From: a candidate division WOR-3 bacterium
Lineage (GTDB): Bacteria; SDB-A
Reading direction: 5' to 3'
DNA length: 64,000 nucleotides
NCBI GenBank assembly: GCA_016934535.1
Contig: JAFGSQ010000006.1
Coordinates: 2,617-66,616, forward strand
Position numbers and translations under genes: made by a program. This document shows, one piece after another, positions 30,733-50,852 of this stretch. Below the pieces are notes generated by a model that did not search any database, had not been told where the DNA came from, and saw only the letters and a program-made list of their open reading frames with translations. The number at the start of each line of letters is the position of its first letter. The first letter of the stretch is position 1.

Positions 30733-32922
30733 ATGTTTTCCCTATTTTTCCTCCTGTTCTTCTCATTTACAAACCAAATCCAGGAAAGACAGATGCTGGT
30801 CAGAATTTTTGTAGACGACTACAGAATTTTAAGGACTATAGACGAAAAAGGACTCGATATAGCCGGAAGAGAGTACGGCGAATACTGGGACATAGTCGTC
30901 ACGCCGCAAAAATTCAATTCTGTAATCGCGTCCGGTTTGCCGTACGAGATTGTTTCCCAAAACATCGAAGGTTTGAAAGATCAGGTCAGGGGTCAATATC
31001 ACAGCTACGATCAGGTCGTCGCTATTATGCGAAACTACGCTTCGACATATTCGTCTATCTGTAAACTCGATTCGATAGGAAAAAGTTACGAAAACAGATG
31101 GATTTACGCCCTTAAAATATCAGACAATCCTTCGTACGAAGATCCCGACGAACCGGGGATCCTCTTCGACGCGCTCCATCACTCAAGAGAATGGGCGACA
31201 ATTGAGGTCGTTCTTTTCTACGCCGACACCCTCTGCAGGGGATACAACAACGACCCCGTATTGACTTCTCTCATCAACGACAACGAAATATGGCTTATTC
31301 CGATGGTCAACGTCGACGGTTATGTCTATGACTACCCCGGTCAGGAATGGTGGAGAAAGACGAGAAAACCTTTCGGCGGATCAACCGGAACAGACCCGAA
31401 CAGAAACTATCAAGGTTGTTTCATGGGCGATCCCTTCGGCGACTGGGGAGCCATACCTCCGGACGCTTCGATGTCCCATTACCCCAGCCAGGAGACTTTC
31501 TGCGGAGCATACAGCGGATGGTCTGAAGAAATTTCAGCAATGGTAAATTTTCACAAAACTCACGAAATAAACGCGAACATAACTTACCACAGCTACGCCC
31601 AGGAAATCCTGTGGCCATGGGGACACACGAGCACCGTGCTTCCTCCCGACAACACGGCAATCGTAAATATAGCCAACCAGATGGCTTCAAGAATTCAAAA
31701 GGTCAACGGAGGAAATTACGTAGCCTCATCGAGTCTTTATCCTACTTCGGGCTCTACAGATGATTTCGTTTACGGATATCATTACTTCATCCATGGTTTT
31801 CCCTGTTTTTCCTACACAATTGAAGTCGGAACTGCATTCTACCAGAACGTCAACAATCTCGATCAGATAGCCCACGAAAACTGGGAAGGAGCGCTTTATT
31901 TCGCCCAACAGGCGGCGACCATACGGCAGAATTATCCATCGAGAGTTCCGTCTTCTGATATATCTGCTCCCGACACAGCAGTTTCAAATTCCTGCCTCAT
32001 AACATGGGCTCCTGTCTTCGCCACTTATAACACTCCCGATCTATGGCAGTTGGACAGGCTTTCAGGCTATTCGTTTACATCTGACGGTATTGAATCCGGA
32101 ACCGCGAACTGGATTCTCTCGGGTTTCACTCAGAGCACTGCTAGAAAACACGCTGGAACCTACAGTCTTTATTCAGGTTCACAGAACAACATCGCCAACA
32201 CCGCACAGACGAGATATCCATACATCGTCCAGCCCAACGACACTTTCTCGTTCTGGTGCTGGAACTACTCCGAGAACAATTATGACGTCACTATTGTGGA
32301 AATCTCGGAAGACGGACTGGCCTGGAATCAGCTCGACACGAGGTACACAGGAAGCCAGCAGACCTGGACTCAGAAAAAATACTCCCTTGCCCCGTGGCAG
32401 GGAAAAGCAGTTTACTTCAGGTTCAGAACCATAACTGACGACGGAACACTGAACGAGAATTTCTATGTTGATGACATATCGCCTGTCGCTCATTTCAATC
32501 AAATCGAGGTTCTGGACAGCATAATCTGTGACACTTTTTATACGGCGACAAGCCTTCCTCTAGGTGAAAGTTATTTCCGAGTCCGCGGCCACAATACGAG
32601 AGGCTGGGGCAATTATTCCAACACGGGTAAAACGATCATCGTTCAGGGAAACTCTGTGGAAGAACCGGTCCAGGTTTTTGCCGGAAATATTTCCGTATTC
32701 AACAATTCCAAAAACATCGAGATAAGATACAGTTTACCCTCCGGTCAGGATATGAGCGTGAACATTTTCGACGTAACGGGAAGACAGGTAGGCAATTACA
32801 GATATCAGAACCTTTCCGGCGACGACAGAATTCAGATATCACCCGCGTCGGAAGGCGTTTTATTCGTTCACGTCAATTCAGGTGAAATAAACATTACAGA
32901 GAAAGTGCTTATAATAAGATAA
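30733..32922 (+). CDS. Secreted M14-family zinc carboxypeptidase with T9SS C-terminal sorting domain
   Basis: Signal peptide. M14 motifs HSREW, NVDGYVY and HSYAQ. The C-terminus IFDVTGRQV...GVLFVHVNSGEINITEKVLIIR is a T9SS CTD. Confidence 0.8.
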   Translation: MFSLFFLLFFSFTNQIQERQMLVRIFVDDYRILRTIDEKGLDIAGREYGEYWDIVVTPQKFNSVIASGLPYEIVSQNIEGLKDQVRGQYHSYDQVVAIMRNYASTYSSICKLDSIGKSYENRWIYALKISDNPSYEDPDEPGILFDALHHSREWATIEVVLFYADTLCRGYNNDPVLTSLINDNEIWLIPMVNVDGYVYDYPGQEWWRKTRKPFGGSTGTDPNRNYQGCFMGDPFGDWGAIPPDASMSHYPSQETFCGAYSGWSEEISAMVNFHKTHEINANITYHSYAQEILWPWGHTSTVLPPDNTAIVNIANQMASRIQKVNGGNYVASSSLYPTSGSTDDFVYGYHYFIHGFPCFSYTIEVGTAFYQNVNNLDQIAHENWEGALYFAQQAATIRQNYPSRVPSSDISAPDTAVSNSCLITWAPVFATYNTPDLWQLDRLSGYSFTSDGIESGTANWILSGFTQSTARKHAGTYSLYSGSQNNIANTAQTRYPYIVQPNDTFSFWCWNYSENNYDVTIVEISEDGLAWNQLDTRYTGSQQTWTQKKYSLAPWQGKAVYFRFRTITDDGTLNENFYVDDISPVAHFNQIEVLDSIICDTFYTATSLPLGESYFRVRGHNTRGWGNYSNTGKTIIVQGNSVEEPVQVFAGNISVFNNSKNIEIRYSLPSGQDMSVNIFDVTGRQVGNYRYQNLSGDDRIQISPASEGVLFVHVNSGEINITEKVLIIR

Positions 32923-32944
32923 TAATCTTTTTATAAACAATAAA

Positions 32945-32976
32945 GGGCTGTTTTTTATGCGACAGCCCTTTTTATT
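32945..32976 (+). terminator. Rho-independent terminator after the M14 gene, potentially bidirectional
   Basis: Stem GGGCTGT/ACAGCCC with a 10-nt loop, followed by TTTTTATT and preceded by an A-run. Confidence 0.6.
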
Positions 32977-33011: not shown

Positions 33012-33662
33012 TTAGTCAACACTGATCAAATTATTTTTTATCCATTTGTTAAAATCCGGTTTACCTGCATTAAACAGCAATTCTTTCAAGGAAATTATAC
33101 TTAAGAACAGCCTGAAGACATGAGCGTAGTTCTTGTAACTGCCTCTGTCCGGATTGTCTACAATTTCAATTATCTCATTTTTTGACAAAAACAATCCGTC
33201 CGACCTCAGCTGATCAGCGGCGAAGATTGCAAATCCTTCAAAAAACCAGACAGGACCCATGGCGTCTTCGTCTCCGTTGAGAATCCTTATATGCAATCTG
33301 TGCGCGATTTCATGAGCCAGAAGTTTTTCGTAACTCGAGTCTTCTATACCTTCGGGATAAACCACGGCATAAAATTCAGGAGTCATTGCCGTCAAAACAC
33401 CTTTCTCAAGAGCTGCGCAATACGTGTCGGGTAATTCGAATTCCGGTACTATCTCCGCCAATGAGGCAAGTTCAGAATTGAACTTTTTCTTGTCGTTAAA
33501 AATTCGGACTTCATTCATGAAAGGTTTTTGGGCATGCTCTTCCCAGCCGAATTTTTTCGCAAAAGCACTTACTCTTTTCCGGGCGTTGTCTATATAACCT
33601 TCAAATTCAATTCTTCTGTTTTCCAAAGATTCCGGTAAAACAAGATTAATGCAATCTTTCAT
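33012..33662 (-). CDS. Hypothetical zinc-metallopeptidase-like protein (HExxH motif)
   Basis: LLAHEIAHRLH motif in a 216-aa soluble protein. Overlaps the upstream GNAT gene by 4 nt. Confidence 0.4.
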   Translation of the reverse strand: MKDCINLVLPESLENRRIEFEGYIDNARKRVSAFAKKFGWEEHAQKPFMNEVRIFNDKKKFNSELASLAEIVPEFELPDTYCAALEKGVLTAMTPEFYAVVYPEGIEDSSYEKLLAHEIAHRLHIRILNGDEDAMGPVWFFEGFAIFAADQLRSDGLFLSKNEIIEIVDNPDRGSYKNYAHVFRLFLSIISLKELLFNAGKPDFNKWIKNNLISVD

Positions 33663-34462
33663 CCGAAATTTCCTCCGATTCTTCCGTAAAGTTTATCGGG
33701 TTGCCAGGGAAATTCTTTTCCAAGAATCATTCTTTTCGCCCGTTTTTTTTCTGCACACCCAATGGACTTAAGGAATTTAATCCCTTCAAGATTATCAGCG
33801 GGTAAGACCGCTTTATTTTTCATTGTCTGCTTTTTTTTCATCAATTCTATGCCTGCTTCAGCATTTTCAGCAACGACAAGACCTTCTCCCATTTTAGGAA
33901 GAAAAAAACCCTGAATTCTTGCATTTTTTTTATAAACAAATCCGTCGTTAATTTTATCGGAAAGAATGCAGTTTCTTTTCTCTCCCGAGACTTTTTCATC
34001 CATTTTCATCACAAGTAAAACATTTTCCGGCGTCAAGGGTTCGATGTGTTTCGCTCTAATATCTTCTTCATTTTCCAAATCAAAAAATACATATTCAGTC
34101 TGAATTCTGAATCCTGCTTTTTCGTACACCGGGCAACCAAGTTCCGTCGCTATGAGAGAGACTGTCTCGCATTTCGAAGTGTTTGTAATCTCCAGTAATT
34201 TTCTGACAATCTCTTTACCGAGTCCTCTGTTCCGGTGGTCCTGTCTTACTATTATATGCGCGAGCCAGGCGGTTTTTCCGAAAACGATAGCAGTTCCGAC
34301 ACCAATTATGTCCTCGCCCATGAAAACCTTTATGGGTGTGCAAAAATGTTTTGAAGCATAATACATAAAAACGGGGACAATATCACCCCACCCTTCCGGC
34401 TGAAGCTTTTTCAGACTTTCTGCTTCTTTATCCGACAATCTTTCTATAATATTAAAATTCAT
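33659..34462 (-). CDS. GNAT-family N-acetyltransferase with C-terminal YitH-like domain
   Basis: Acetyl-CoA binding motif QDHRNRGLGKEIV (R/QxxGxG/A). Total 267 aa with a C-terminal extension. Confidence 0.7.
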   Translation of the reverse strand: MNFNIIERLSDKEAESLKKLQPEGWGDIVPVFMYYASKHFCTPIKVFMGEDIIGVGTAIVFGKTAWLAHIIVRQDHRNRGLGKEIVRKLLEITNTSKCETVSLIATELGCPVYEKAGFRIQTEYVFFDLENEEDIRAKHIEPLTPENVLLVMKMDEKVSGEKRNCILSDKINDGFVYKKNARIQGFFLPKMGEGLVVAENAEAGIELMKKKQTMKNKAVLPADNLEGIKFLKSIGCAEKKRAKRMILGKEFPWQPDKLYGRIGGNFG

Positions 34463-34991
34463 ATAAAAATTTATTCAAAACAACTTTATTTTTAGAATCG
34501 AATTCAATGCCTTCCATTTCGAGAAGCCTTCGTTTCATGTCTGAGCCTCCCTGAAATCCTCCCAATGACCCGTCAGACCTCACTGTTCTGTGGCAGGGAA
34601 TCAACAGTGGAAAAGGATTTTTGGACAAAGCATTTCCAACAGACCTCGCGCCGTTTTTCAAACCGAGGTATTCGGAGATTATTTTATATGTCGTAACAAA
34701 ACCTCTCGGAGTTTTACTTTCCGCCGCAAGCACCTTATTTTGAAATTCCGAGCAGACACTAAAATCGAGCAAATCAAGGTTGAATGTAACTTCCCATCCC
34801 TTTAGAAAAGCCTGGATTTTGTAAGCGGTATCATCAATCTGGTCGCAGCTTTTTTTCTCGCAATCCGCTCTTTTTAATGTTCCTCCGTCCTTTAATGAAA
34901 AACCTGTTATCAGGGAGTTTTTCTCATATAGACGCCAAAAAATAACTGTTTTACCGAAAACAGTAATATTATCCAAAAAGTAACAGTCCAT
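34452..34991 (-). CDS. ogt: Methylated-DNA-protein-cysteine S-methyltransferase (O6-alkylguanine-DNA alkyltransferase)
   Basis: Active-site IPCHRTV motif (PCHR) and the helix-turn-helix DNA-binding region before it; 179 aa. Confidence 0.85.
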   Translation of the reverse strand: MDCYFLDNITVFGKTVIFWRLYEKNSLITGFSLKDGGTLKRADCEKKSCDQIDDTAYKIQAFLKGWEVTFNLDLLDFSVCSEFQNKVLAAESKTPRGFVTTYKIISEYLGLKNGARSVGNALSKNPFPLLIPCHRTVRSDGSLGGFQGGSDMKRRLLEMEGIEFDSKNKVVLNKFLYEF

Positions 34992-35016
34992 TTATCTCGC
35001 CGTTTGAAGAATATTT

Positions 35017-35961
35017 TTATATCAGATGATTCTCTTTTCCCGACTTCGTCAGGCAAAGACCTGTCAAATCTTTTATGTCGGCTTCTCCCACGCACATCAC
35101 CGTGTCTGCGCCGCCCCAATAGATTTTCACGGTTTTGTCCGGTTCAGGTACCGCCCCGCAAGTAAATACGACATTGTGTACATAACCTGTAATTTCCCAG
35201 GGATCCTGCGGTTGTAAAATCCAGTCATCTGATATGCCGAGGATTTTTGAGGGATCTTTTATATCGTGGAGAGCTGCTCCAAGTCTGTATACGGCTCCGT
35301 CCATAGTTTTAAAAACTCCGTGATAGATATTTAACCAGCCTTCATCTGTCTTAATAGGTGTCGCCCCGGGACCTATTTTCATCTCGTCCCATCTGTACTG
35401 TCCGGGTTTCATTATTACTTTTGAATCACCCCAATAGATCAGGTCGGGAGAATATGAAATCCAGATAGACCAGGGTGAAATTTCAGAATGAGGCCTGTCG
35501 AGTCTCGCGTATCTTCCGTCAATTTTCTCCGGAAAAATTACGACATTCCTGCTGTCAGCCACGGTGATTAAAGCGATTCGTTCAATGTTAAAAAAATCCT
35601 CGGTTTTGGCCAAGGCGGTTCTTACTCCGTGTCTGGAATAAGCGCTGTAAGTTAAAAGAAATTCCCCCTCGATTTCACAGATTCTGCAGTCTTCAACTCC
35701 GTATTCTTCGTATTCTGCAAAAACACCTTTTTCGGCGGGGACAATAAAAGGTTTTTCCCTGACTATAAAATTATATCCGTCTTCGCTTTCGGCTATACCG
35801 ATTATGGATCTGCCGTTTCTTTTGTGTGAACGAAAAAGCATGACATATTTTCCGGCGTGTTTTACTGCACCGGCGTTGTGGACGGTTTCAACCTGATACG
35901 GGACGTCATCCTTCGTCAGTATCGGATTTTGTTTGTATCTGCGGACAATTTCTTTTTTCAC
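35017..35961 (-). CDS. Glycoside hydrolase family 130 (beta-mannoside phosphorylase/hydrolase-like)
   Basis: 314 aa beginning NPILTKDDVPY, typical of the GH130 N-terminus. Beta-propeller-like repeats with conserved Asp/Glu (YSPDLIYWGD, DEGWLNIYHG). Confidence 0.6.
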   Translation of the reverse strand: MKKEIVRRYKQNPILTKDDVPYQVETVHNAGAVKHAGKYVMLFRSHKRNGRSIIGIAESEDGYNFIVREKPFIVPAEKGVFAEYEEYGVEDCRICEIEGEFLLTYSAYSRHGVRTALAKTEDFFNIERIALITVADSRNVVIFPEKIDGRYARLDRPHSEISPWSIWISYSPDLIYWGDSKVIMKPGQYRWDEMKIGPGATPIKTDEGWLNIYHGVFKTMDGAVYRLGAALHDIKDPSKILGISDDWILQPQDPWEITGYVHNVVFTCGAVPEPDKTVKIYWGGADTVMCVGEADIKDLTGLCLTKSGKENHLI

Positions 35962-36992
35962 CTTTTTAACGCACCTTCAGAATTCAATAATATTTCATTA
36001 TAAACTTCTATATATTCCCGTGCCATTCGTTCTTTTGTAAATTTGTTTTCTATTGTTTTTCTGCAATCACTTCTTTTGATTTCACTTATCTTTTCTACGC
36101 AGTCCGCCGCCTCCTTAACGGATGAAACGAGAAAACCTGATTTTTTATCTTCTATTATTTCCTGCATGCTTCCTTTTTTGAAAGCTATTACCGGAGTCCC
36201 GCAAGCCATAGCCTCAACAACCGAGAGACCAAAAGGTTCTTCAAAATTTATCGGATGTAACAGAGCCTCAGCATTGCCGAGTAATTCGTTCCGTTCCTGG
36301 GGGGCGACACTGCCAAGATAATTTATTTCCCCTGATTTGACAAACGGCTCAATATATTTATGAAAATATTCCTTGTCCTGTACAATTCCAGCCATCAGCA
36401 GTTTTTTCCCTGTCATTCTCGATATCTCCACCGCTTCTTTGGCTCCCTTGTCCGGATGGAATCTTCCGAAAAACAACAGGTAATCCCCTTTTGGATTTTC
36501 TCTGTAAGTGAAATTCTCAAGATCAATTCCATGGTGTATGGTCTTTTCGTAGGACAGCAGAGGAGACCTGTCAGAATCGCTTATAGAGACATAATATGTC
36601 ACCTCATCGTATTTTTTATAAACCTCGATAATTTTTTCAGAAGAAAATCCGTGTATTGTCGTCAAAACAGGAGTCTGGACCAGTTTTGAATATGTCAAAG
36701 GCAAGAAGTCGAAATTATTGTGAATTATGTCGAAATCGGAAGCCTTTTCAAAGCAGTTTGATATGTGCAGGCATTCCCGGACTTTCGGATCTACTTTTTT
36801 GTCCTCTTCATAACCTTTCGGGCAGACGGACAGGAGTTTTGCGCATGTAACTGAATCGCCCGTTGCGAAAAGAGTTACGTCCATTCCCATTCTGACAAGT
36901 TCTTCTGTAAGAAGAGATGTAACCCTTTCCCACGGTCCGTAATGCCTTGGCGGTGTACGCCAGGCTATAGGAGCGAGCATTGCTATTTTCAT
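35958..36992 (-). CDS. Glycosyltransferase family 4 (GT-B fold)
   Basis: 344 aa. The C-terminal EX7E-like region FEEPFGLSVVEAMACGTPVIA is typical of GT4. Confidence 0.75.
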   Translation of the reverse strand: MKIAMLAPIAWRTPPRHYGPWERVTSLLTEELVRMGMDVTLFATGDSVTCAKLLSVCPKGYEEDKKVDPKVRECLHISNCFEKASDFDIIHNNFDFLPLTYSKLVQTPVLTTIHGFSSEKIIEVYKKYDEVTYYVSISDSDRSPLLSYEKTIHHGIDLENFTYRENPKGDYLLFFGRFHPDKGAKEAVEISRMTGKKLLMAGIVQDKEYFHKYIEPFVKSGEINYLGSVAPQERNELLGNAEALLHPINFEEPFGLSVVEAMACGTPVIAFKKGSMQEIIEDKKSGFLVSSVKEAADCVEKISEIKRSDCRKTIENKFTKERMAREYIEVYNEILLNSEGALKR

Positions 36993-37014
36993 TGCATCTG
37001 AGAGCCGGTTTTGG

Positions 37015-38469
37015 TCAGGTCATAGCGTCTAATAAATCTTTTGTATCAACAACGGCAAAACCGGTTGCATAATCCGACATCGCGTAAGGAATTATAAGTT
37101 TATTTTTATGTTTCAAAGCTCCGCAGGTGTAAACAACATTCGGAACGTAACCTTCCCTTTCATTTTCGTCCGGTTCAATCAAAGGTTTTTTAAGGCGTCC
37201 GATGACTTTTGAAGGATCGTCCCTGTCGAGGAGAAAAGCACCAATACAGTATTTTCTCATCGGCCCGACTCCGTGGCTCAGGACAATCCATCCTTCATCG
37301 GTTTCTATCGGAGAACCGCAGTTTCCGATCTGGACAAATTCCCATGTAAAAGTAGGGCGGATAATTATTTGGGGTTCAAACCAGAAATGAATATTTTCAG
37401 AATACATAATGAACAAATTTTCGTTGTCCTGTCTCGAAAGCATCGTGTATAAACCGTTGATTTTCTTCGGAAAAAGAGCAAGCCCCTTGTTTTTTGCCGC
37501 TGGTCCGTTCAGAGTGATGAACGTAAAAGAAACAAAATCTTTTGTCTCAATCATTTGGGGGAGAATCGTTTTACCGTCAAACGCTGTATATGTCGCATAA
37601 TAAAGGCGGGTCCCGTTTTCTTCTGAAAACAATACAAATCTTGCATCTTCAATCCCGTTGCGATGACTGGGAGCGAAAGGAAAGATCGCTTTTTCTGAGG
37701 TTTTTTGATCAATTCCAAAAGTGACTTCATAATTTGAATAAGCGAGCACAAGAATGTTCTGAGCGGTTAATTCTATATCTCCTCCGGAGTGTTGAAATCT
37801 ATTTTTAGTTCGGTTAATATTTTCCTTTAATTCCGACAAAGTAAAATTTTCCGGAAGCAGTGATAAAACATTTTTGCTGAATTCGTTTTGAAAATTCAGT
37901 TCAGTTAATTTCCTCGAAAAAAGGTTTTTCTCATATATTTGATTCGGTTTCATGACCGGTTGAGTTACAAAAGGAGTCGGCTGTTTGATCTCAATCTGAA
38001 AATCATCCGATATCGTTCCTTCTCTGAATACTATCGACGAAATGTGTCCTTCTCCTGTAGCTCTCAGACTTAATATGAATTTAATTGAACCTTCGGGGAG
38101 ACCGGATTGATCGGGGTGCGGAACAATGCACGGATTGAAAAGGGCGGCTGATTCGAGAGAATATTCCTGCGTGAAATACGCTCCGATTAGAAGTTTTCTC
38201 TCGTCAGAAAGTGCATTGTCCGTTATCGTCCAGCGCCGAACATTTTCAAAATTTCTCAATAATACTTTTTTTATATCCTGGTGACGGGTTTTAAAATCCG
38301 TCATAACTTTTTCCAGCACCTCTTTTGTCTGTTTTTCGCTAAGGCTCATAACCCTTCCGATAATCTTTTCTCTTCTGCTTTCATCTTCCGGGATAAACTC
38401 TCTTATTAGAACTCTTTCGTGAGAGGGTTTTAATATTATGTTCTTTTTTTCAAGATGCAAATTTTTCAC
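37015..38469 (-). CDS. GH130-family glycoside phosphorylase-like protein with N-terminal extension
   Basis: 484 aa. The C-terminal two-thirds show GH130-like motifs (YTCGA, DPSKV, ETDEGW) parallel to those in 35017..35961. Confidence 0.55.
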   Translation of the reverse strand: MKNLHLEKKNIILKPSHERVLIREFIPEDESRREKIIGRVMSLSEKQTKEVLEKVMTDFKTRHQDIKKVLLRNFENVRRWTITDNALSDERKLLIGAYFTQEYSLESAALFNPCIVPHPDQSGLPEGSIKFILSLRATGEGHISSIVFREGTISDDFQIEIKQPTPFVTQPVMKPNQIYEKNLFSRKLTELNFQNEFSKNVLSLLPENFTLSELKENINRTKNRFQHSGGDIELTAQNILVLAYSNYEVTFGIDQKTSEKAIFPFAPSHRNGIEDARFVLFSEENGTRLYYATYTAFDGKTILPQMIETKDFVSFTFITLNGPAAKNKGLALFPKKINGLYTMLSRQDNENLFIMYSENIHFWFEPQIIIRPTFTWEFVQIGNCGSPIETDEGWIVLSHGVGPMRKYCIGAFLLDRDDPSKVIGRLKKPLIEPDENEREGYVPNVVYTCGALKHKNKLIIPYAMSDYATGFAVVDTKDLLDAMT

Positions 38470-38473
38470 TATT

Positions 38474-40750
38474 TTATTCCTCTATAGGATTTATGTACTG
38501 CAATTTTTTCTGTTCCGCATTGAATCCATGCATTGAAAGCAGAGACAAGAGCCATGCGAGTGTCGATTCGGCCCCCTGATTCAAGTTGGGTCCATCGGGA
38601 GTCAAGCCGTCTTTGCACCCGCCCGTCGTGTAATCGTAAAGAGGTTCATTCAAAACATTCTGGCCCAAAAACCAGTTGAAAGCAAGATGCGCCGTGTTGC
38701 TGTAAAGCTCGTTTCCCGTCATGTTGTATGCCAGAAGACATGTTTCGAGCATTGATTGAGCTTCAATAGGCTGTTGATCGAACATGGATTTTGTCTTGCC
38801 TTTTCTCAGCCAGTCTCTGTTGCCGACCGGACAGAAATAATTCTTTTCTATCTGCAGTTCTATCAGCCAATTCAAAAGTTTGTATCCTGTTTCTGTCATG
38901 TCGTTGCGCTGCATCCATTGTCCTGACAACAAGAGCGCCTGAGGCACTTTCGCGTTTGCATAAAACAGCTCGTCGTCGAACCACGGCCATTTTTCATCCG
39001 GCCGGTTTTTAATTTTTTCAAAAAGATAATTTGCCAATTTTTCGCGTATCCTGCGAACTTCGCTGTCACCGGAAAATCTTGCCAGGTACGCGTGTATTCC
39101 GACCAAAGCAAACGAAACTGAACGCGGATGCCTGAGTTCTTCCATCAATTTAATGGTTTTGTGAAAAAGAGTCGTGCTCAAAGCAACACAACCCCTGTCT
39201 TTTGACAGGGCCGCACTCACACCGAGACCCCATATTGCTCTGCCCTGGCTGTCTTCGGAACCTTTTTCTTCGAGCCAGGTTCTGTCAAAAGACATGAAGT
39301 TTCTGAACCATCCGTTCTTTTCATTGAAAGCGTGCTGGATGAACGCGAGATACTTTTTTTGAAATCTGAAAAATTGAGGATCTTCCGGAGTCAGACTTTG
39401 AGCCATCACCGATGCAATAAGAGCTCTCGAGTTGTCATCCATACAGTAACCGTGATTGTAATCAGGTATCGAATAAGTGGCGTGCTGTATTATTCCTGTA
39501 TCATCAGTCATTAGTAAAATGTGCCTGAAATCAATTTCGGGCAGGCTTGTCTTGTCCTGATCGAGTGTTTTCGTGTTGAAAAACACTCGCGCTTTTTTGA
39601 CTCTTTCATCCTTGACTTCGTTAAAAACAGCCAAGTAATCCACGGCGACCTGATTCCAAACTGCTTTTCGAAGATACGTGTAAGCCCGTTTTCTCATGGC
39701 GTTTCGTTTATTGTCGTCTTCGAGAAGTTCTATTACAGAATCAGCCAATCCGTCTGAATCCCTGAAATTCACCAAAATACCCCTGTCATCCGCCATCATT
39801 TCCTTGGCGTACCAATAAGGAGTCGATACAGAGGCTTTACCCACACCCATGGCGTAAGCGAGTGTTCCGGATACTATCTGCGCTTCTGAAAGATACGGAG
39901 TTACATATACGTCGCATGCGCCAAGGAATTCACAAAGTTCCTTTCTGTCGACAAAGCGGTTAAAAAACATAATATTCTGATCTACACCGATTGCTTTTGC
40001 ACGCCTGACAAGGTTTTGCCTGTATTCTTCACCCTGCGTTTTTTTTATGTTGGGATGAGTGGCTCCTACAACTATATAAACTGCGTCCGGGTGTTTTTTA
40101 ACAATTATCGGCAGAGCCTCTATCATAAATTCGATCCCTTTGTTTGGAGACAGAAGACCGAAGGTGAGGATTACTTTTTTTCCTTCCACGCCGAACTGGT
40201 CTTTGTAAAAATTTGGATCGACAAAGGGCATGTCAGGAATTCCGTGGTGTATTAAAGTAATCTTTTCTTCCGGGATATCGTATATATCTTTCAAAAAACA
40301 GCAAGCAGTCTCTGACATGACGACCAGCCTCGATGAAAGGGAAGCTATATCAATCAGCGTTTTTCTCTGCTTGTCTGACGGCTCTTTAAGCACAGTGTGC
40401 AAAGTCGTCACTACCGGCATTCTCAACCGGCGAATCAGTGAAAGAATGTATGTTCCCGTTTCGCCTCCGAAAATTCCGAATTCGTGTTGAAGCGACACAG
40501 CATCAATTTGGCTGATGTTCAGGTAATCAGAAGCAAGTACATATTCGCTCGATCTGTTCTGATTTATCTCAAAACGGACTTCTTTTGGATATTTGTATCC
40601 TTCAGATCTGTCGTTCATCGCCAGGGTCCAGCAATCAATTTCATTTCCGACATTAGAAATCGCCGTGACAAGGTCTGTAGTAAAAGTCGCTATTCCGCAC
40701 ATCCGCGGAAGGTAATTTCCTATGACAGCGATTGATCTGATTCTTTCCAA
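38474..40750 (-). CDS. Bifunctional-looking protein: N-terminal GT4 glycosyltransferase fused to a C-terminal (alpha/alpha)6-barrel glycoside-hydrolase-like domain
   Basis: The first ~400 aa are GT4 (YVTPYLSEAQIVSGTLAYAMGVGKASVSTP). The last ~350 aa are rich in aromatic/acidic residues in a six-hairpin-glycosidase-like pattern. Confidence 0.6.
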   Translation of the reverse strand: MERIRSIAVIGNYLPRMCGIATFTTDLVTAISNVGNEIDCWTLAMNDRSEGYKYPKEVRFEINQNRSSEYVLASDYLNISQIDAVSLQHEFGIFGGETGTYILSLIRRLRMPVVTTLHTVLKEPSDKQRKTLIDIASLSSRLVVMSETACCFLKDIYDIPEEKITLIHHGIPDMPFVDPNFYKDQFGVEGKKVILTFGLLSPNKGIEFMIEALPIIVKKHPDAVYIVVGATHPNIKKTQGEEYRQNLVRRAKAIGVDQNIMFFNRFVDRKELCEFLGACDVYVTPYLSEAQIVSGTLAYAMGVGKASVSTPYWYAKEMMADDRGILVNFRDSDGLADSVIELLEDDNKRNAMRKRAYTYLRKAVWNQVAVDYLAVFNEVKDERVKKARVFFNTKTLDQDKTSLPEIDFRHILLMTDDTGIIQHATYSIPDYNHGYCMDDNSRALIASVMAQSLTPEDPQFFRFQKKYLAFIQHAFNEKNGWFRNFMSFDRTWLEEKGSEDSQGRAIWGLGVSAALSKDRGCVALSTTLFHKTIKLMEELRHPRSVSFALVGIHAYLARFSGDSEVRRIREKLANYLFEKIKNRPDEKWPWFDDELFYANAKVPQALLLSGQWMQRNDMTETGYKLLNWLIELQIEKNYFCPVGNRDWLRKGKTKSMFDQQPIEAQSMLETCLLAYNMTGNELYSNTAHLAFNWFLGQNVLNEPLYDYTTGGCKDGLTPDGPNLNQGAESTLAWLLSLLSMHGFNAEQKKLQYINPIEE

Positions 40751-40798
40751 TTTTATATCCTTTTGTTATATTCCGTATCTATGAGATTTAACAACGCC

Positions 40799-41896
40799 TT
40801 ATTTGTTTTCAATTTCAAATCTTTTATCAATGAATTTAGAATTCATAATCCTCAATACCCCGAGATAATCCAATTTAAATTCAAGAAAATCTCCGGTTTT
40901 GTAATTTTTGGGATTGTCTCCAAGATCAATCACAAACATATCTGAACTGGCTCCAATTATTGAATATGAGTCGTCGGCAGGGAAAACATGGTTTTTATCT
41001 ACATCGAGTATACCTATGTCAATTATAGCCCGATGTGAATTTTTATTAGCTTCGTTTATATCATGTCTTTGACTTTCTCCCTCAATGTTAGTCCCCATAT
41101 CGCCTATTGGTATACTCGGTTTATTTTTAAGTTCGATTATTTCGCAGTATAGTTTAAAAACGTCAGGATGAAGGTCTTTTAACGGCGCTCCGTTGTAGAC
41201 ATCCGTTCCCAAAAACAGAGATTCTCCCACTCTGAAATGATTTATTCCCCTGGGCAAAAGATTTTGAAAAATTAAAGGTATGGTAACAGAGGCTCCCCCT
41301 GAAACAAGCGGAATCCTTTTTCCGAATTTAGCTTCAATTAATTGCTTATATAAACTTAACTGTATTAGTTTATCATGATTCGGAAGCACTCCATTCAAAC
41401 AAGCAAGGTTTGTCCCAATTCCAACAACTTCTATATTTGGAAGTTCGAATATTTTTAAATAAAAATCCATCAATCTGTCTCTCATGACACCTTCTCTAAG
41501 CTCCCCCATCTCAATCATAATAATAATCTTATGTATTTTGTTCTGACACTGGGCTTCTTTGGATAAAAGGCCAACGGTTTTCAATTCTGTATTAAGACTA
41601 ATATCTGCATATTTTACGACACTTGGAATTGATTTCTGTGGCGGGGGTTTTATGTAAATCGTTTCAACGCCGGGATCTATACTTTTAACCATCTTCAAGC
41701 TCGAAAGTCTCGAGTCGCAGACCTGATCTACGTTTAATTTCAGCACTTCTTCGAGATATTCTCTGTTTCCGCAGAGAAGTTTAGTGACTACGGCCCATTT
41801 TATTTCGTGTTTTTTAAATATCTTGTCGAGATATTTGTAGTTAGACCTTAATTTTGAGCTGTTTAATGTTATTTTGGCCATATCACTATTTGGCAA
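40799..41896 (-). CDS. PLP-dependent fold-type III enzyme, alanine/ornithine racemase-like (YhfX/Orr family)
   Basis: 365 aa with an N-terminal TIM-barrel-like segment carrying the Lys (WAVVTKLLCGN) and a C-terminal beta domain. The assignment is tentative. Confidence 0.45.
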   Translation of the reverse strand: MPNSDMAKITLNSSKLRSNYKYLDKIFKKHEIKWAVVTKLLCGNREYLEEVLKLNVDQVCDSRLSSLKMVKSIDPGVETIYIKPPPQKSIPSVVKYADISLNTELKTVGLLSKEAQCQNKIHKIIIMIEMGELREGVMRDRLMDFYLKIFELPNIEVVGIGTNLACLNGVLPNHDKLIQLSLYKQLIEAKFGKRIPLVSGGASVTIPLIFQNLLPRGINHFRVGESLFLGTDVYNGAPLKDLHPDVFKLYCEIIELKNKPSIPIGDMGTNIEGESQRHDINEANKNSHRAIIDIGILDVDKNHVFPADDSYSIIGASSDMFVIDLGDNPKNYKTGDFLEFKLDYLGVLRIMNSKFIDKRFEIENK

Positions 41897-42326
41897 GTCT
41901 CATTTCGAGATACTTGTTTGTGAAACCGGATTTTTCATAGAGGAATCTCGCCGGATTGTCAGGTTCGACATGAAGCTTAATGTTTCCATCCGCTTTTTCA
42001 ATAGTATTTCTCAGCAGTTCTTTGCCTATTCCTTTTCCCCTGTTCTCTCTCTTTGTGGCTATATAGACGAGAATATTTTCAGGAATGTAGTCTTTCATTC
42101 CGGTCCTGTTGACGACAACCGCGCCCAGAATATCGTTTTCGGAATTGTATGTAATGACAAATCCACCGAATGATTCTATATTTTTCAATGCGTAATCGAC
42201 CGCTTTTTCAATCGCTGGTTTAGGGTCTCCGTATTTGTCTAAATTTTCAAAAAGAAAATCGACAATTTTACTTTTTTCAATGGGAGCCGGCTTGTTATCC
42301 GGTCTGTAAATTTTTATTTCTGCCAT
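41886..42326 (-). CDS. GNAT-family N-acetyltransferase
   Basis: 146 aa with the RENRGKGIGKELL motif. Confidence 0.75.
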   Translation of the reverse strand: MAEIKIYRPDNKPAPIEKSKIVDFLFENLDKYGDPKPAIEKAVDYALKNIESFGGFVITYNSENDILGAVVVNRTGMKDYIPENILVYIATKRENRGKGIGKELLRNTIEKADGNIKLHVEPDNPARFLYEKSGFTNKYLEMRLAK

Positions 42327-42395
42327 GATATAACTCCTTTCATATACATAAGGATTGAGATAGAGCTTTCAAAATCTCAATATAAAATCCTGCCG

Positions 42396-42818
42396 TCAAG
42401 TCTTTGAACTGTGAATTTTCTCTGCGAAAGCCAAAACATGACCGTCCGGATCCGAAAAGTAACAAGTTCTGTCACCCCAGTTTCTTTTCTCTATCGGGCT
42501 AATCTCTACAGCTCCTGTTTTTTTGGCGTTTTCGTATTCAAATTCAAGATCTTCGACATATAGGTATAATTCGCACCTCGGAATACCGTTTCCTTTTGAC
42601 GGATGAAGAGTTTTTTCTTTTAATATAGACGCAATACCGTCATTTGGCATAATGCCTAATCTTAAGTTTTCAAAGACATCGAATTCTGTCATCCCCGGGA
42701 CATCAAGATCAGGTTCCTTCCTGAAAATATTTTTGTAAAATTCAGCGCTCCTTTTCTGATCACTGACATAAAGCACTGTTAGGAAACACTTTACATGTTC
42801 AAGCAATTTACTCTCCAT
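42396..42818 (-). CDS. VOC-family protein (glyoxalase/bleomycin-resistance/dioxygenase fold)
   Basis: 140 aa with paired beta-alpha-beta-beta-beta modules and the C-terminal DPDGHVLAF motif typical of VOC proteins. Confidence 0.7.
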   Translation of the reverse strand: MESKLLEHVKCFLTVLYVSDQKRSAEFYKNIFRKEPDLDVPGMTEFDVFENLRLGIMPNDGIASILKEKTLHPSKGNGIPRCELYLYVEDLEFEYENAKKTGAVEISPIEKRNWGDRTCYFSDPDGHVLAFAEKIHSSKT

Positions 42819-43022
42819 TTTATTGATTTTTTGAAATTTTTTAAGAGTTTATTAAAGAAAAACAACATCAAATATATATTATATCATAACATGCATGTAA
42901 AATATTGTCAAGGTAAAGGTAAAAATGAATCAGTTTCTGTAAAATATGAACAGCGCGCAGCCATTTCCGTGTTTTTTCTACATAAAAGGCTTATAAAAGT
43001 ATGAATTTTTATATTTTACAAT

Positions 43023-43754
43023 TCATTTTATCAAACTTACAATACCGATGTATTGACCCTTTTCTAATTCAGAATGCTCTATTGTCTCAAAAAAAACATT
43101 ATAACCTGCTTGTTCAAGGAGATCCTGCCAGGTCTTTTGATGAAAAATTCCGTTTATTGAAAGATCGTCCTCGAACCGTATTTCACCTTTTTCGTTCATC
43201 AGAATATACGCGAAATAAGTTTCTGTCAGATTATCGTCCGGGTCGTCATCTTTCATCCATTCCAAATATCTCATGCTTCTTTCTTTTCTGTCGTGTCCTC
43301 CATGGCTCGTTTGAGGCTTGAAAGTTTCCTTGAAGTAATCCGGTGCCATGAACAAAATTCCGTCTTTTTTCAGGTGTTCCATGGCCGTGATGAAAGTTTT
43401 GAAAAGATCTTCTTCCGTTGTCATATACATTATTGCGTCGTGAATGAAAACAAGGTCGAATTTTTCTCCAAGCCTTACTACCCTCATGTCGCCTTCAAAA
43501 TGTCTGCATTCGGGATTTAATAACTTGCTGACCTCAAGCATACCCGGAGAGATGTCGACTAAAGTCATGTTGTAATGTTTCTTAAAGAACGATGCGTTAC
43601 TGCCTCCTCCGCATCCAAGTTCAAGAGCGCATTTTATATCTTTCTTGTATTTTTCAATTATTTTTATATAAAGTCCGGATTCTTCCTCGTAATCCTCGGG
43701 AGCGGACAACACGGGCCACCACTTGGAGAGTTCATTATAGAGTTTCACGTTCAC
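43023..43754 (-). CDS. Class I SAM-dependent methyltransferase
   Basis: Motif I LELGCGGGSN, motif post-I VDISPGM and motif II region DLVFIHDAIMYM. Confidence 0.8.
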   Translation of the reverse strand: MNVKLYNELSKWWPVLSAPEDYEEESGLYIKIIEKYKKDIKCALELGCGGGSNASFFKKHYNMTLVDISPGMLEVSKLLNPECRHFEGDMRVVRLGEKFDLVFIHDAIMYMTTEEDLFKTFITAMEHLKKDGILFMAPDYFKETFKPQTSHGGHDRKERSMRYLEWMKDDDPDDNLTETYFAYILMNEKGEIRFEDDLSINGIFHQKTWQDLLEQAGYNVFFETIEHSELEKGQYIGIVSLIK

Positions 43755-43789
43755 CTCCCTTTTTTCTGTCGCTTGGTTCGACCTTTTCT

Positions 43790-44341
43790 CTAGCGAATAT
43801 AATTGACAAGGTCAAGATTCCTTTTCGGCGCTTCCGGTTGTGTATCCATTGCTTTGTATCCGAGAGCGATTGAATAAAGCGGTTCGTATCCTTCCGGAAT
43901 GCAGATTTTTTTATTAACTTCATCTTTTAAACCGAAAAGCACAAATCCCAGCCAAATTGAACCTATATTGAGGCTTTCAGCCGCTATCAACATGTTCTGC
44001 GTTGCAGCACAACAGTCAATTTTATATGTTATGGCGTCTTTTTTCCCCGAAATCACAATTAGCGTCGGCGCTTTGTAAGTAATGTCATATTCAGGATTTT
44101 TACCGGCATTTTTAATCCATTCATTGTCAAGAGACGACATGAACTTTTTTGCTTCAACATTTATCAGATCAATTATTTTTCTGTCCTGAATTACAGTGAA
44201 ATACCAGGGTTGAGTATTGTGACCTGAAGGAGCGTACATGCCGGCCTCTATAATCCGGTCAAGTTCCTCCTGCTTTATCTGTTCTTTTTTATAAGCTCTT
44301 ATACTTCTTCTTCTCTTTATAGTCTGAAGTACATCATTCAT
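43790..44341 (-). CDS. Nitroreductase-family FMN-dependent oxidoreductase
   Basis: Nitroreductase signature RRSIRAYKKEQI...APSGHNTQPW; 183 aa. Confidence 0.85.
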   Translation of the reverse strand: MNDVLQTIKRRRSIRAYKKEQIKQEELDRIIEAGMYAPSGHNTQPWYFTVIQDRKIIDLINVEAKKFMSSLDNEWIKNAGKNPEYDITYKAPTLIVISGKKDAITYKIDCCAATQNMLIAAESLNIGSIWLGFVLFGLKDEVNKKICIPEGYEPLYSIALGYKAMDTQPEAPKRNLDLVNYIR

Positions 44342-44360
44342 CTATGCCCTCCTTTTGTGC

Positions 44361-44753
44361 TTATTTGTCACCTAATTCATCTCCTGCATTCAATCTCTCT
44401 TTCAACTCAATGCTCATCTCGAGGAAATCCCTGTAAGCCTTATCTCTTTGTTTAAACATTGAAAAATAGACTGAAAATATGTTATAGAATTCATCGGAAG
44501 TACAATAATCGAAAAGAATGATTCCATCGAAGCAATTGACTTTCTGAATAATAAACGGAAGAACAAAATCGTTGAAATATCTGTCGAAGTGTTCTTCGAC
44601 AAATCTTAGTCCGTCTATACCCGTGTGATAATCAACAATACTCTTCCTTTTTTCAAAATCTCTTATGACACCAATATTTCCGCTGCCGGTCATATCCTCA
44701 TACGTGCTTTTTTGCAGATTTATCCGGGATAATGTTCCCATTAAATTAATCAC
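44361..44753 (-). CDS. Hypothetical protein (130 aa)
   Basis: The ORF starts 3 nt after the stop of the preceding small membrane ORF. No recognisable family. Confidence 0.35.
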   Translation of the reverse strand: MINLMGTLSRINLQKSTYEDMTGSGNIGVIRDFEKRKSIVDYHTGIDGLRFVEEHFDRYFNDFVLPFIIQKVNCFDGIILFDYCTSDEFYNIFSVYFSMFKQRDKAYRDFLEMSIELKERLNAGDELGDK

Positions 44754-44755
44754 CG

Positions 44756-45052
44756 CTAACGCAGAATCCTCTGAGAAAAACCATCGGCCATAGATAAAAC
44801 CAGAGGAGACGCTCTTTCGAGCCAGGTGCTGTCTTTCTCTATTTGTGTCTCCAGTTCCTCTATATTGAATTGTATGTCCTGAAGAAAACCGGCGATATAT
44901 TTTTTTTCCAACTGTCTCTCCTGAAAATCCGATCTCCAGTTATTAAGAACAAAGCCGGCTGTTACGCCAAGAAAAACCACTAAAAGTTCAAGTGTCAATT
45001 TAAACAATAAACTTCCGCGATCTTGTTTTGGGTTATTTTTGTTTTTGGACAT
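44756..45052 (-). CDS. Hypothetical small single-pass membrane protein (98 aa)
   Basis: N-terminal basic stretch, one TM helix (LLFKLTLELLVVFLGVTAGFVL), then a predicted coiled coil. Confidence 0.35.
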   Translation of the reverse strand: MSKNKNNPKQDRGSLLFKLTLELLVVFLGVTAGFVLNNWRSDFQERQLEKKYIAGFLQDIQFNIEELETQIEKDSTWLERASPLVLSMADGFSQRILR

Positions 45053-45144
45053 TTTTATCCATGATATTATTTCTTGTAACTATATTCAACATCATAAAAT
45101 CGGCGATGATTAAAAAATTCCGAATTGCAATGAGAGCGACTAGT

Positions 45145-45912
45145 TCATAAAATATTTTCTTTTTTTAAAATGTTTTTCAATCTTGTCATGGACACGTATC
45201 TGTCTGCGAGAAGTTGTCCGTCGTAAATCAGGTTGAACGTCGCGTACAAAGAAGGCGCCTTCTGGGCTTCGGCGGGGGTTTTAAGTTCTTTAATTTTTAT
45301 ATTCTCGTCAAGTCCGGATGCGTGTATTTCCTGAATAAGCCTCGCCACCCATGGACACTGCTTTGAATATACTATGTTAATGCCCTTATATTTTAACAGC
45401 TGTTTTTTCCAGTCATTAAATCTTGGAAGCGGAGCTCCTTTAAAAGAACGCACCAGCAATTCATTCGAGGAACCGTCCTTTTCAGTTTCTATGAAGCCGT
45501 TTTTAATAAAAAGCCTTTTATCAGCCATAAAAGGTCCGGAACTTGTCACGACAGCAACACCCGGGCATCCCGATTTTTTTGCATCCTGAAGACACTCTTC
45601 TATTAACTTAGATCCATATCCGCGACCCTTGTTTTTATTAGGGTAGACATAAAGGCAGTGAATGAACATGTATTCCTGGGCTGATACAGCGCGCCAGGCA
45701 TTCTCTCCGGGAACGTACTCGATGAAACCGGCAGGTCTTTTTTGATTTTCAGGAAATAAAAGTTTAATTCTCAATCCCTCAGAGAATCGTTTTTTCAGCC
45801 ATCCGGTTTTCAAAGGGTGCGAGCTGTGTTTAGGATTGATAAAGCAAATTATTTCAGGATATTCTTTGTAGTTTTTTCCGTCGACATTTACTATTTTGAC
45901 CAAATTCTTCAT
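45145..45912 (-). CDS. YoaP-like protein: GNAT N-acetyltransferase fused to a YoaP-type C-terminal domain
   Basis: GNAT core (NKGRGYGSKLIEE), then a C-terminal domain with a CPW motif as in Bacillus YoaP. Confidence 0.6.
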   Translation of the reverse strand: MKNLVKIVNVDGKNYKEYPEIICFINPKHSSHPLKTGWLKKRFSEGLRIKLLFPENQKRPAGFIEYVPGENAWRAVSAQEYMFIHCLYVYPNKNKGRGYGSKLIEECLQDAKKSGCPGVAVVTSSGPFMADKRLFIKNGFIETEKDGSSNELLVRSFKGAPLPRFNDWKKQLLKYKGINIVYSKQCPWVARLIQEIHASGLDENIKIKELKTPAEAQKAPSLYATFNLIYDGQLLADRYVSMTRLKNILKKENIL

Positions 45913-50087: not shown

Positions 50088-50852
50088 ATGAGTGCCTTGA
50101 ATTGTTTTGCTCTTATTTTTGTTTCTTTGTCAGCCTGTTCCAACCTTCAAAAAGCAAATCTTGACAGCAATTACTGTCAAAATAAAGTAGACGAATTTAA
50201 TCAACTTATTAAGCCGTATTTTTGTTACGAGGAAACTGATCCGGACAAACGATTTGACGTTACAAATTTCTTACTAGTCCTCGACCTCCTTTCCATGGAC
50301 AGCGGCTATCGCCTGGATTTCCTTTACATGCCTGTCGCCGGAGGCGGGCAACCTGTTCTGGTTTCGATACCTGTATCACAGTCCATCGATGAATTCGCTG
50401 ATAAATTCAGAGATATATTTACAGAGGAAGAATGGCAAAATAACGCGGCTTACGATAAATTCTTTGAACACATTCGAACCGACGGTTCACCGGAAGCCTT
50501 TTTCCAGCTAGCCATTCTCGGAATTATGGGCAATCATTTCTGCCTTTTCTGGCATTCCCTGGAGTTAGACGATGTCATCATCTGCAGCCAAAGTGGTCTC
50601 GATGAACTTATCAACACCCTTTTGTCCGAAGGATTCCAGATTCCGCCGGACGCACTTAAAACAGCGCGCGAGACCGACCTTACTCCTTCAATTATAATGA
50701 CTGAAAATTCAGTTGAAATATCAGTTATAGCCTTTACTAAATACGGAGGATTTGAGAAACACACGCTTGTTTTTAATTCTGAATTTCCTCACATTCTGCT
50801 TTCAAGAAACATTGAAACTGTCGCTTGGTGCTTTATAGGAGGAATTCACTAA
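50088..50852 (+). CDS. Hypothetical lipoprotein
   Basis: Signal peptide with a lipobox-like LSAC. 254 aa, no recognisable family. Confidence 0.4.
   Translation: MSALNCFALIFVSLSACSNLQKANLDSNYCQNKVDEFNQLIKPYFCYEETDPDKRFDVTNFLLVLDLLSMDSGYRLDFLYMPVAGGGQPVLVSIPVSQSIDEFADKFRDIFTEEEWQNNAAYDKFFEHIRTDGSPEAFFQLAILGIMGNHFCLFWHSLELDDVIICSQSGLDELINTLLSEGFQIPPDALKTARETDLTPSIIMTENSVEISVIAFTKYGGFEKHTLVFNSEFPHILLSRNIETVAWCFIGGIH

Follow-up and report, generated by a model that had tools for sequence, protein, structure and literature searches.

We describe a four-gene cassette at 35017-40750 of a 64,000-nucleotide stretch of DNA (the window) from a candidate division WOR-3 bacterium (contig JAFGSQ010000006.1, positions 2,617 to 66,616 of the forward strand), in which two genes for family 4 glycosyltransferases (GT4) alternate with two genes for proteins of glycoside hydrolase family 130 (GH130). 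The cassette consists of two GT4-GH130 pairs, namely a conserved core, in which a GT4 domain fused to an (alpha/alpha)6 barrel is followed by a GH130 protein with an E/K residue signature (GH130L), and an accessory pair, in which a small GT4 resembling glucosylsucrose synthase (GT4s) is followed by a GH130 protein with an E/R signature (GH130s). We tentatively propose, with confidence a little short of even, that these proteins work together in the cytoplasm to build a mannose-containing oligosaccharide or glycoside, used as a reserve or stress solute, and to turn it over by phosphorolysis; the product and donors of this module are those that we infer. Because the family assignments hold, the proteins have no signal peptide or membrane segment, and no transporter or kinase recurs in 80 related loci, a self-contained system for making and recycling such a compound in the cytoplasm is the most economical reading. 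A preliminary description of this DNA, made from its sequence alone, did not extend to the wide distribution of the cassette, its organization in two pairs, the kinship of GT4s with the glucosylsucrose synthase TeGSS or the unusual donor site in the GT4 domain of the fusion.

Layout and conservation of the cassette

The two GH130 and two GT4 genes recognized on one strand in the preliminary description are borne out by Pfam. PF04041 (Glyco_hydro_130, cut-off 26) is matched by GH130s (E 9e-53, 179.6 bits) and by residues 261-483 of GH130L (E 3e-28, 99.1 bits), and the two GT4 proteins score 87.1 and 78.8 bits against Glycos_transf_1 (cut-off 26.4). Against Glyco_transf_4 (cut-off 28.5), the fusion protein, whose GT4 matches span residues 17-380, scores 35.5 bits and GT4s falls just under the cut-off at 26.4 bits. 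The four open reading frames (ORFs) lie head-to-tail in a tight, operon-like block (Table 1). Of the 4-nt overlaps formerly described, one is real, the stop codon of GT4s and the start of GH130s sharing GTGA at 35958-35961 as read directly, but it is the only overlap in the cassette: the fusion and GH130L genes are separated by 4 nt (read directly) and the GH130L and GT4s genes by 22 nt (from the coordinates). All four proteins lack a hydrophobic N-terminus, signal peptide and membrane-like segment and are thus predicted to be soluble, in agreement with the cytoplasmic location suggested earlier. Rfam and tRNA scans of the window yielded no RNA genes, and the best promoter-like site (42911-42883) and a bidirectional terminator-like hairpin (32942-32971) were found in scans that were otherwise uninformative.

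Table 1. Coordinates of the cassette genes and of the two domains of the fusion protein, in window positions
Feature	Position	Strand	Description
Fusion protein	38474..40750	minus	758 aa, TTG start, AAGGA ribosome-binding site
GT4 domain of fusion	39581..40750	minus	residues 1-~385, divergent GT4 (GT-B), non-canonical donor site
C-terminal domain of fusion	38477..39580	minus	residues ~391-758, (alpha/alpha)6 barrel, YPO2471 family
GH130L	37015..38469	minus	484 aa, GTG start, beta-propeller with N-terminal extension and insertion
GT4s	35958..36992	minus	344 aa, soluble GT4, glucosylsucrose synthase (TeGSS) clade, canonical donor site
GH130s	35017..35961	minus	314 aa, GTG start

Full-length homologues of the fusion protein number in the thousands, at 55-80% identity, and in a scan of one genome per species at least 593 species, spread over about 20 phyla, proved to carry it. 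These phyla include Fibrobacterota, Spirochaetota, Desulfobacterota, Bacteroidota/Ignavibacteria, Planctomycetota, Chloroflexota, Acidobacteriota and Verrucomicrobiota, with further carriers in Lentisphaerota, Elusimicrobiota, Myxococcota, Actinomycetota, Alpha- and Gammaproteobacteria and several candidate phyla. The neighbours of the fusion gene were counted by tblastn of the four window proteins against 80 fusion loci, of which the 71 with at least 1.2 kb of sequence downstream of the fusion gene were usable. A GH130 gene is present in 60 of these 71 and in 52 lies directly downstream of the fusion gene on the same strand; the directly downstream gene codes for the long form with an N-terminal extension in 16 of the 52, and in the other 36 for a short form of about 320 aa with only about 38% identity to GH130s. 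The small GT4 was found in 14 loci, and close orthologues of GH130s (64-74% identity) always adjoin a GT4s gene. All four gene types occur together, in varying order, in 7 of the 71 loci, among them that of the cultured Desulfobacter vibrioformis, and a metagenome contig (L083) likewise holds all four; a three-gene version with the fusion, the long GH130 and the small GT4 occurs in Proteiniphilum and Sediminispirochaeta bajacaliforniensis. Given the presence of GH130 genes in most of the loci, usually directly downstream, across so many phyla, and the co-occurrence of all four gene types, the arrangement is not a product of chance.

When all ORFs from the 80 loci were clustered, every other gene family was confined to six loci at most; those that recurred formed small groups such as regulators, GroEL, an RNA-binding protein and an unfused paralogue of the fusion's GT4 domain. 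No transporter, kinase, flippase or secreted glycosidase is found among these recurrent neighbours, which extends to the related loci the earlier observation that the cassette has neither transporter nor kinase. The genes flanking the cassette, coding for an Orr-like racemase, GNAT acetyltransferases and ogt, were rejected as further members, as their synteny is limited to close WOR-3 relatives.

The GH130 proteins and their GT4 partners

A proton-donor Asp, a phosphate-binding Arg/His pair and the lack of a signal peptide have been given as the marks of phosphorylases within GH130, and the pair of residues in the +1 subsite as an indicator of linkage, Y/R corresponding to beta-1,4, E/K to beta-1,2 and E/R to beta-1,3 (Li et al., PMC7660257). 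We aligned both GH130 proteins of the window to solved enzymes and checked the key columns in their orthologues. GH130L has the proton donor D275, the +1 pair E274/K328 and the phosphate site R346 and H399, all invariant in 24 of 24 orthologues, and GH130s has the equivalent D91, E90/R138, R156 and H214, invariant in 9 of 9. The short GH130 that takes the place of GH130L in other phyla shows an invariant donor Asp, E/K in 27 of 27 sequences, and the Arg and His of the phosphate site in 27 of 27 and 26 of 27, respectively. As they retain the proton donor and the phosphate-binding Arg/His, GH130s and GH130L are predicted to be phosphorylases, and the same prediction is made for the short form. 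The GH130 partner of the fusion thus always carries the beta-1,2-type signature, that of beta-1,2-mannoside phosphorylases of the GH130_4/_6 type, and the partner of the small GT4 carries E/R, the pair assigned to beta-1,3 enzymes, so that GH130s lacks the beta-1,2 signature. Environmental GH130 meta-nodes predicted to be beta-1,2-specific remained uncharacterised in that survey (PMC7660257).

GH130L has its best PDB matches among beta-1,2-oligomannan and beta-1,2-mannobiose phosphorylases (9fj8, 7fip), its catalytic domain being nearest to Teth514_1788/1789 (E 3e-35 and 3e-33), and GH130s matches TM1225, Lin0857 and Teth514_1788. Neither reaches the cut-offs (450 and 550 bits) of the NCBIfam equivalogs for beta-1,2-mannobiose phosphorylase, NF052550 and NF050092, against which GH130s scores 209.5 and 244.6 bits and GH130L 148.7 and 151 bits. 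About 240 residues precede the well-aligned part of the propeller in GH130L; the FNP motif of the first blade was placed at residues 107-120 by a weak, partial match to a hidden Markov model, at positions consistent across orthologues, which suggests that the N-terminus is extended by about 95 aa and that a segment of about 100 aa is inserted.

The best solved relative of GT4s is PDB 7FG9, which it matches over its full length (residues 1-338, E 4.5e-76), followed by the tetrahydrobiopterin glucosyltransferases (BGluT). The former is TeGSS (tll1591) of Thermosynechococcus, a UDP-glucose-dependent alpha-1,2-glucosyltransferase that elongates sucrose to glucosylsucrose oligomers, compounds that build up during salt and heat stress (PMC9909042). 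With such nearest relatives, GT4s is best placed in a clade of soluble GT4 enzymes that act on small molecules or oligosaccharides. It shares with TeGSS its solubility and catalytic residues, retaining equivalents of Y18, R179 and K184 and both glutamates of the EX7E motif, and its canonical Leloir donor site comprises R177, K182, E252 and E260. In TeGSS, Trp10 stacks on the fructose of sucrose; the aligned residue in GT4s is Ala10, with a Trp at the next position, 11. Whereas TeGSS adjoins sucrose-phosphate synthase in the cyanobacterium, GT4s adjoins GH130, and no sucrose-phosphate synthase gene lies next to it here or in the related loci. Furthermore, 7 of the best 120 homologues of GT4s carry a C-terminal cupin of the mannose-6-phosphate-isomerase type (PF01050), a fusion that links GT4s to mannose metabolism while leaving its donor unsettled; L083, the contig with the full four-gene cassette, is one of those with the cupin-fused form. 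In Sediminispirochaeta bajacaliforniensis a gene of the DUF386 family (YhcH/YjgK/YiaL cupin; locus L088, 13807-14262) follows the small GT4, in the place that the short GH130 occupies in the window. Cupins, be they DUF386 or the fused type, may be a recurrent accessory.

The GT4 domain of the fusion presents a different picture. Its best PDB matches by sequence are PimA and PimB' (E 7e-12), both GDP-mannose-dependent. We mapped its donor site by aligning the domain with PimB' and 5i45 in HMMER and, profile against profile, with the small-GT4 family, the PimA alignment being offset by one residue at the Arg position, and determined conservation in 80 homologues. The canonical Leloir donor site, with the Arg and Lys of the GR...KG motif and the EX7E glutamates, is not found. 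The diphosphate-binding Arg is replaced by Leu199 in all 80 homologues; the first Glu of EX7E is unconserved, with an invariant Gln291 (80 of 80) nearby, and the ribose-binding second Glu is replaced by Tyr299 in 76 of the 80. The Lys of the GR...KG motif (Lys204) and the active-site His of the motif TLHT (His118) are present in every homologue. This strong constraint suggests that the domain is probably functional, although it may not follow the usual mode of nucleotide-sugar binding. A stand-alone paralogue of about 408 aa lies beside the fusion gene in four loci (L009, L011, L017 and L059); as it shares the unusual motifs PRLCGIATF, QHEYG and QSGTLA, this non-canonical GT4 subfamily also exists in unfused form.

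A search with residues ~391-758 of the fusion recovered no Pfam match and, as a single sequence, no match in the PDB. As a fold search with the whole fusion returned GT4 structures only (MshA, PimA, PimB' and BshA), we modelled the C-terminal domain separately. The resulting AlphaFold model, of high confidence (pLDDT 92, pTM 0.91), takes the form of an (alpha/alpha)6 barrel. A profile of 44 diverse barrel homologues retrieved YPO2471 of Yersinia pestis (PDB 7TEM, E 1e-23), a structural-genomics entry that is also the best structural match (score 38.3); sequence and structure therefore both place the barrel in the YPO2471 family, the only one of its sequence relatives with a solved structure. 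YPO2471 itself is stand-alone and annotated as a putative exported protein, whereas the barrel of the cassette is fused to GT4; Pfam has no model for this family, and we found no paper on YPO2471. The next structural matches are cellobiose 2-epimerase of the AGE superfamily (30.5) and other AGE members, namely glucose 2-epimerase, mannose isomerase and YihS (28-29), all of which outrank the first clear mannoside glycosidases, the GH76 alpha-1,6-mannanases (about 27) and MmpH, the GH15/GH125-like methylmannose-polysaccharide hydrolase of mycobacteria (25.6). Hence the (alpha/alpha)6 fold given in the preliminary description stands, but the label of a glycosidase-like domain is unproven. The barrel family comprises 4604 cluster representatives at E<=1e-3. 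Its members also occur as stand-alone proteins of about 360 aa and N-terminally fused to a GFO/IDH/MocA sugar oxidoreductase or to a BD-FAE-type alpha/beta hydrolase (homologues P0246 and P0252); such alternative partners might hint at the substrate.

The barrel conserves the motif GYCxDDNARA (residues 434-443, with D438/D439), the further acidic residues D500, E/D592, D658, E663, D714 and E728, and several invariant Trp, and its conserved acids look like the catalytic centre of a glycosidase, transglycosylase or phosphorylase. In MmpH, D47 and D50 are the candidate catalytic acids and E262 is the base (PMC9883506). The DD pair of the barrel lies at domain positions 48/49, and D268/E273 lie near 262; as the comparison is one of numbering, the likeness of the catalytic positions is suggestive only.

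A proposed make-and-recycle module and its alternatives

In the module that we propose, GT4s and the fused GT4 domain would add alpha-linked sugars to a small acceptor or a growing chain, and the GH130 proteins would reversibly add or remove beta-mannosyl units in exchange with alpha-mannose-1-phosphate (Man1P), with GDP-mannose as a further possible donor, as in characterised beta-1,2 members of the family. The barrel, with its acidic centre, would cut or transfer the chain, in a role resembling that of MmpH in the recycling of methylmannose polysaccharide or that of the cyclisation domain of cyclic beta-1,2-glucan synthase. Together these activities would tie an intracellular pool of glycan to that of Man1P with no need for ATP or transport. 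This proposal draws support from the intact catalytic and phosphate-site residues of the GH130 proteins and their invariance in orthologues, from the conserved adjacency across about 20 phyla with no recurring transporter, kinase or secreted glycosidase, and from the tight operon junctions and the lack of signal peptides and membrane segments. The nearest relatives of GT4s, TeGSS (PMC9909042) and BGluT, being soluble glycosyltransferases of small molecules or oligosaccharides, point in the same direction, as does the mannose-6-phosphate-isomerase-type cupin fused to GT4s in several metagenome contigs, including the one with the whole cassette. Moreover, characterised beta-1,2 GH130 enzymes reversibly make beta-mannosides from Man1P or GDP-mannose (PMC4264767, PMC12814180).

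Similar logic is seen in the mycobacterial methylmannose polysaccharide system, where the GT4 enzyme ManT works with the barrel hydrolase MmpH, an (alpha/alpha)6 endomannosidase that makes primers (PMC9883506). However, ManT and MmpH are separate genes, accompanied by methyltransferases and not by GH130, whereas the cassette has a fusion and GH130 proteins; there is no detectable sequence similarity between the two systems, and ManT has a normal GDP-mannose site.

Several observations weigh against the proposed module. GT4 enzymes retain configuration and make alpha linkages and, to our knowledge, every characterised GH130 protein acts on beta-mannosides; thus, although synthesis plus recycling, as first suggested in the preliminary description, is the best available reading, the GH130 proteins cannot simply recycle the products of the GT4 enzymes. 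Either the product is of mixed linkage or the GH130 proteins themselves add beta-mannose, and the physiological relevance of anabolic GH130 activity has been doubted (PMC12814180). With neither the canonical Arg nor the two Glu that normally line the site for nucleotide sugars, the fused GT4 domain may be something other than a transferase of the ordinary kind. The fusion gene is without a neighbouring GH130 gene in 11 of the 71 loci, GT4s occurs alone in Sphingobacterium, and the clustering of ORFs in the 80 loci revealed no linked phosphomannomutase or GDP-mannose pyrophosphorylase/guanylyltransferase.

The preliminary description had suggested a comparison of the cassette with loci for mannosylglycerate and mannosylglucosylglycerate (MGG), among others, noting that GT4 enzymes commonly glycosylate glycerate or glycerol. 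This parallel does not hold, since neither a synthase of the GpgS/MpgS type (GT81, GT55 or GT78) nor the phosphatase is found in the cassette or its flanks or conserved in the related loci, and GT4s is closest to an enzyme that elongates sucrose. MGG is alpha,alpha-linked (PMC3736172) and therefore not a substrate for GH130; as it is, moreover, made by a GT81 enzyme, the GT4 enzyme MggA and a phosphatase, we rejected it as the compatible solute in question.

An unlikely alternative is salvage, in which imported beta-mannosides would be phosphorolysed by the two GH130 proteins, one acting on long and the other on short chains, and the Man1P activated and used by the GT4 enzymes for alpha-mannosylated glycoconjugates. 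This has been proposed for the cluster Teth514_1785-1796 of Thermoanaerobacter sp. X-514, which, like the cassette, sets two GH130 enzymes, both beta-1,2-mannoside phosphorylases, beside a GT4 enzyme, in that cluster an alpha-mannosyltransferase, all of them cytoplasmic (PMC4264767), and whose two phosphorylases are the best PDB matches of GH130L. That cluster, however, has an ABC transporter, a GH5 enzyme and a Man1P guanylyltransferase, which are absent from the cassette and not conserved in the 80 loci, and the lack of a linked transporter weakens the case for salvage. It also has neither the (alpha/alpha)6 fusion nor a TeGSS-like GT4, both of which the cassette has; GH130L differs from its enzymes by the N-terminal extension and the insertion, and GH130s by having E/R instead of E/K. 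The unusual donor site of the fused GT4 domain raises another prospect, to which we give somewhat less weight still: the domain could use the alpha-Man1P that the adjacent GH130 releases or consumes, beta- and alpha-mannosides being interconverted by two phosphorylases through a shared sugar-1-phosphate and the product processed by the barrel. The replacement of the diphosphate-binding Arg and the ribose-binding Glu, the unconserved first Glu and the invariance of Lys204 and His118 would fit such a shuttle, as would the strict adjacency to a GH130 phosphorylase, and GT4 is among the families that contain phosphorylases (PMC4264767, PMC7660257). The loss of the Arg could equally mean another mode of nucleotide binding or lost catalysis. 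We also count against the shuttle that the characterised trehalose phosphorylase of family GT4 keeps the Arg/Lys phosphate site.

It is improbable that the cassette serves the synthesis of the cell envelope or of exopolysaccharide, with ordinary GT4 enzymes of cell wall biosynthesis and GH130 proteins that trim or edit the glycan. JGI does label homologues as "glycosyltransferase involved in cell wall biosynthesis", and there are weak NCBIfam matches to GT4 families of exopolysaccharide and lipopolysaccharide synthesis, but all of these fall far under their cut-offs, none of the 80 loci has a linked gene for a flippase, polymerase, polyprenyl-phosphate transferase or exporter, all four proteins are predicted to be soluble, and phosphorylases require cytoplasmic phosphate (PMC7660257). 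Least probable of all, in our view, is that the barrel acts as an AGE-type epimerase or isomerase, converting the reducing-end sugar between Glc and Man so that GH130 can act. The structural matches are in keeping with the idea, for which mannan catabolism offers a model in the cellobiose 2-epimerase that serves 4-O-beta-mannosylglucose phosphorylase. Catalysis in the AGE superfamily depends on a pair of His residues from the C-terminal half of the fold, whereas the sole conserved His here is domain residue 33, with none conserved beyond it, and many Asp and Glu are invariant; nor did single-sequence and profile searches of the PDB find any sequence similarity to AGE proteins. Catalysis of the AGE type thus seems excluded.

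Genomic surroundings and implications of the cassette

The cassette lies within a long same-strand run of genes for small-molecule modification (33012-45912, minus), which includes four GNAT acetyltransferases, the Orr-like racemase, a pyridoxal-phosphate enzyme whose gene overlaps that of a GNAT by 11 nt, a glyoxalase-fold protein, a nitroreductase, an S-adenosylmethionine-dependent methyltransferase, ogt and an HExxH protein. Elsewhere in the window, a 582-aa protein (46007-47755, minus) joins the membrane domain of a Na+/H+ exchanger to a C-terminal EIIA-2 domain of the phosphotransferase system, an uncommon regulatory fusion. An M14 zinc carboxypeptidase (30733-32922, plus), whose gene is syntenic in related WOR-3 contigs, bears an InhA-like MAM domain and a C-terminal Por/T9SS sorting domain, which implies type IX secretion in this bacterium. 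A 1241-aa STAND-type NTPase (24687-28412, plus; AAA_16/nSTAND3) has a long TPR array, and its first ~415 residues have no Pfam match. There are also a very large ORF of 1328 aa (9756-13742, minus) and two ORFs, of 464 aa (47902-49296, minus) and 254 aa (50088-50852, plus), that match nothing in Pfam.

We found no paper describing this cassette, its fusion protein or the barrel family. A comparable logic is known from the mannogen cycle of Leishmania, an intracellular beta-1,2-mannan reserve that is made and degraded by five-bladed propellers related to GH130, in exchange with Man1P and GDP-mannose (PMC10913872, PMC12814180). That system, however, is eukaryotic and relies on mannosyltransferase/phosphorylases of family GT108, without a GT4 or (alpha/alpha)6 partner, and no GT108 chain is among the PDB sequence matches of either GH130 protein of the window. 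A bolder proposition, which we hold to be doubtful, is that many environmental bacteria of about 20 phyla keep a hitherto unseen intracellular glycan or solute that contains mannose and is run by GH130 proteins in an anabolic or turnover capacity together with a new GT4-(alpha/alpha)6 enzyme, whose transferase domain would have given up nucleotide sugars and may take the Man1P handed on by the GH130 protein paired with it. Bacteria would then have their own equivalent of the mannogen cycle, assembled from different parts.

GH130 enzymes have nearly always been treated as catabolic mannoside phosphorylases. In hundreds of species the cassette sets their genes beside GT4 genes of biosynthesis, with no transporters, and therefore offers a cloneable system in which to probe a role of bacterial GH130 proteins in anabolism or in the turnover of reserves. 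Furthermore, it would give the YPO2471 barrels, for which a structure has been solved, their first functional context, and would delimit a GT4 subfamily that is under strong conservation despite its non-canonical donor site. It may also bring to light a carbohydrate pool, common yet so far unseen, in Acidobacteriota, Chloroflexota, Verrucomicrobiota, Planctomycetota, Desulfobacterota and other bacteria.

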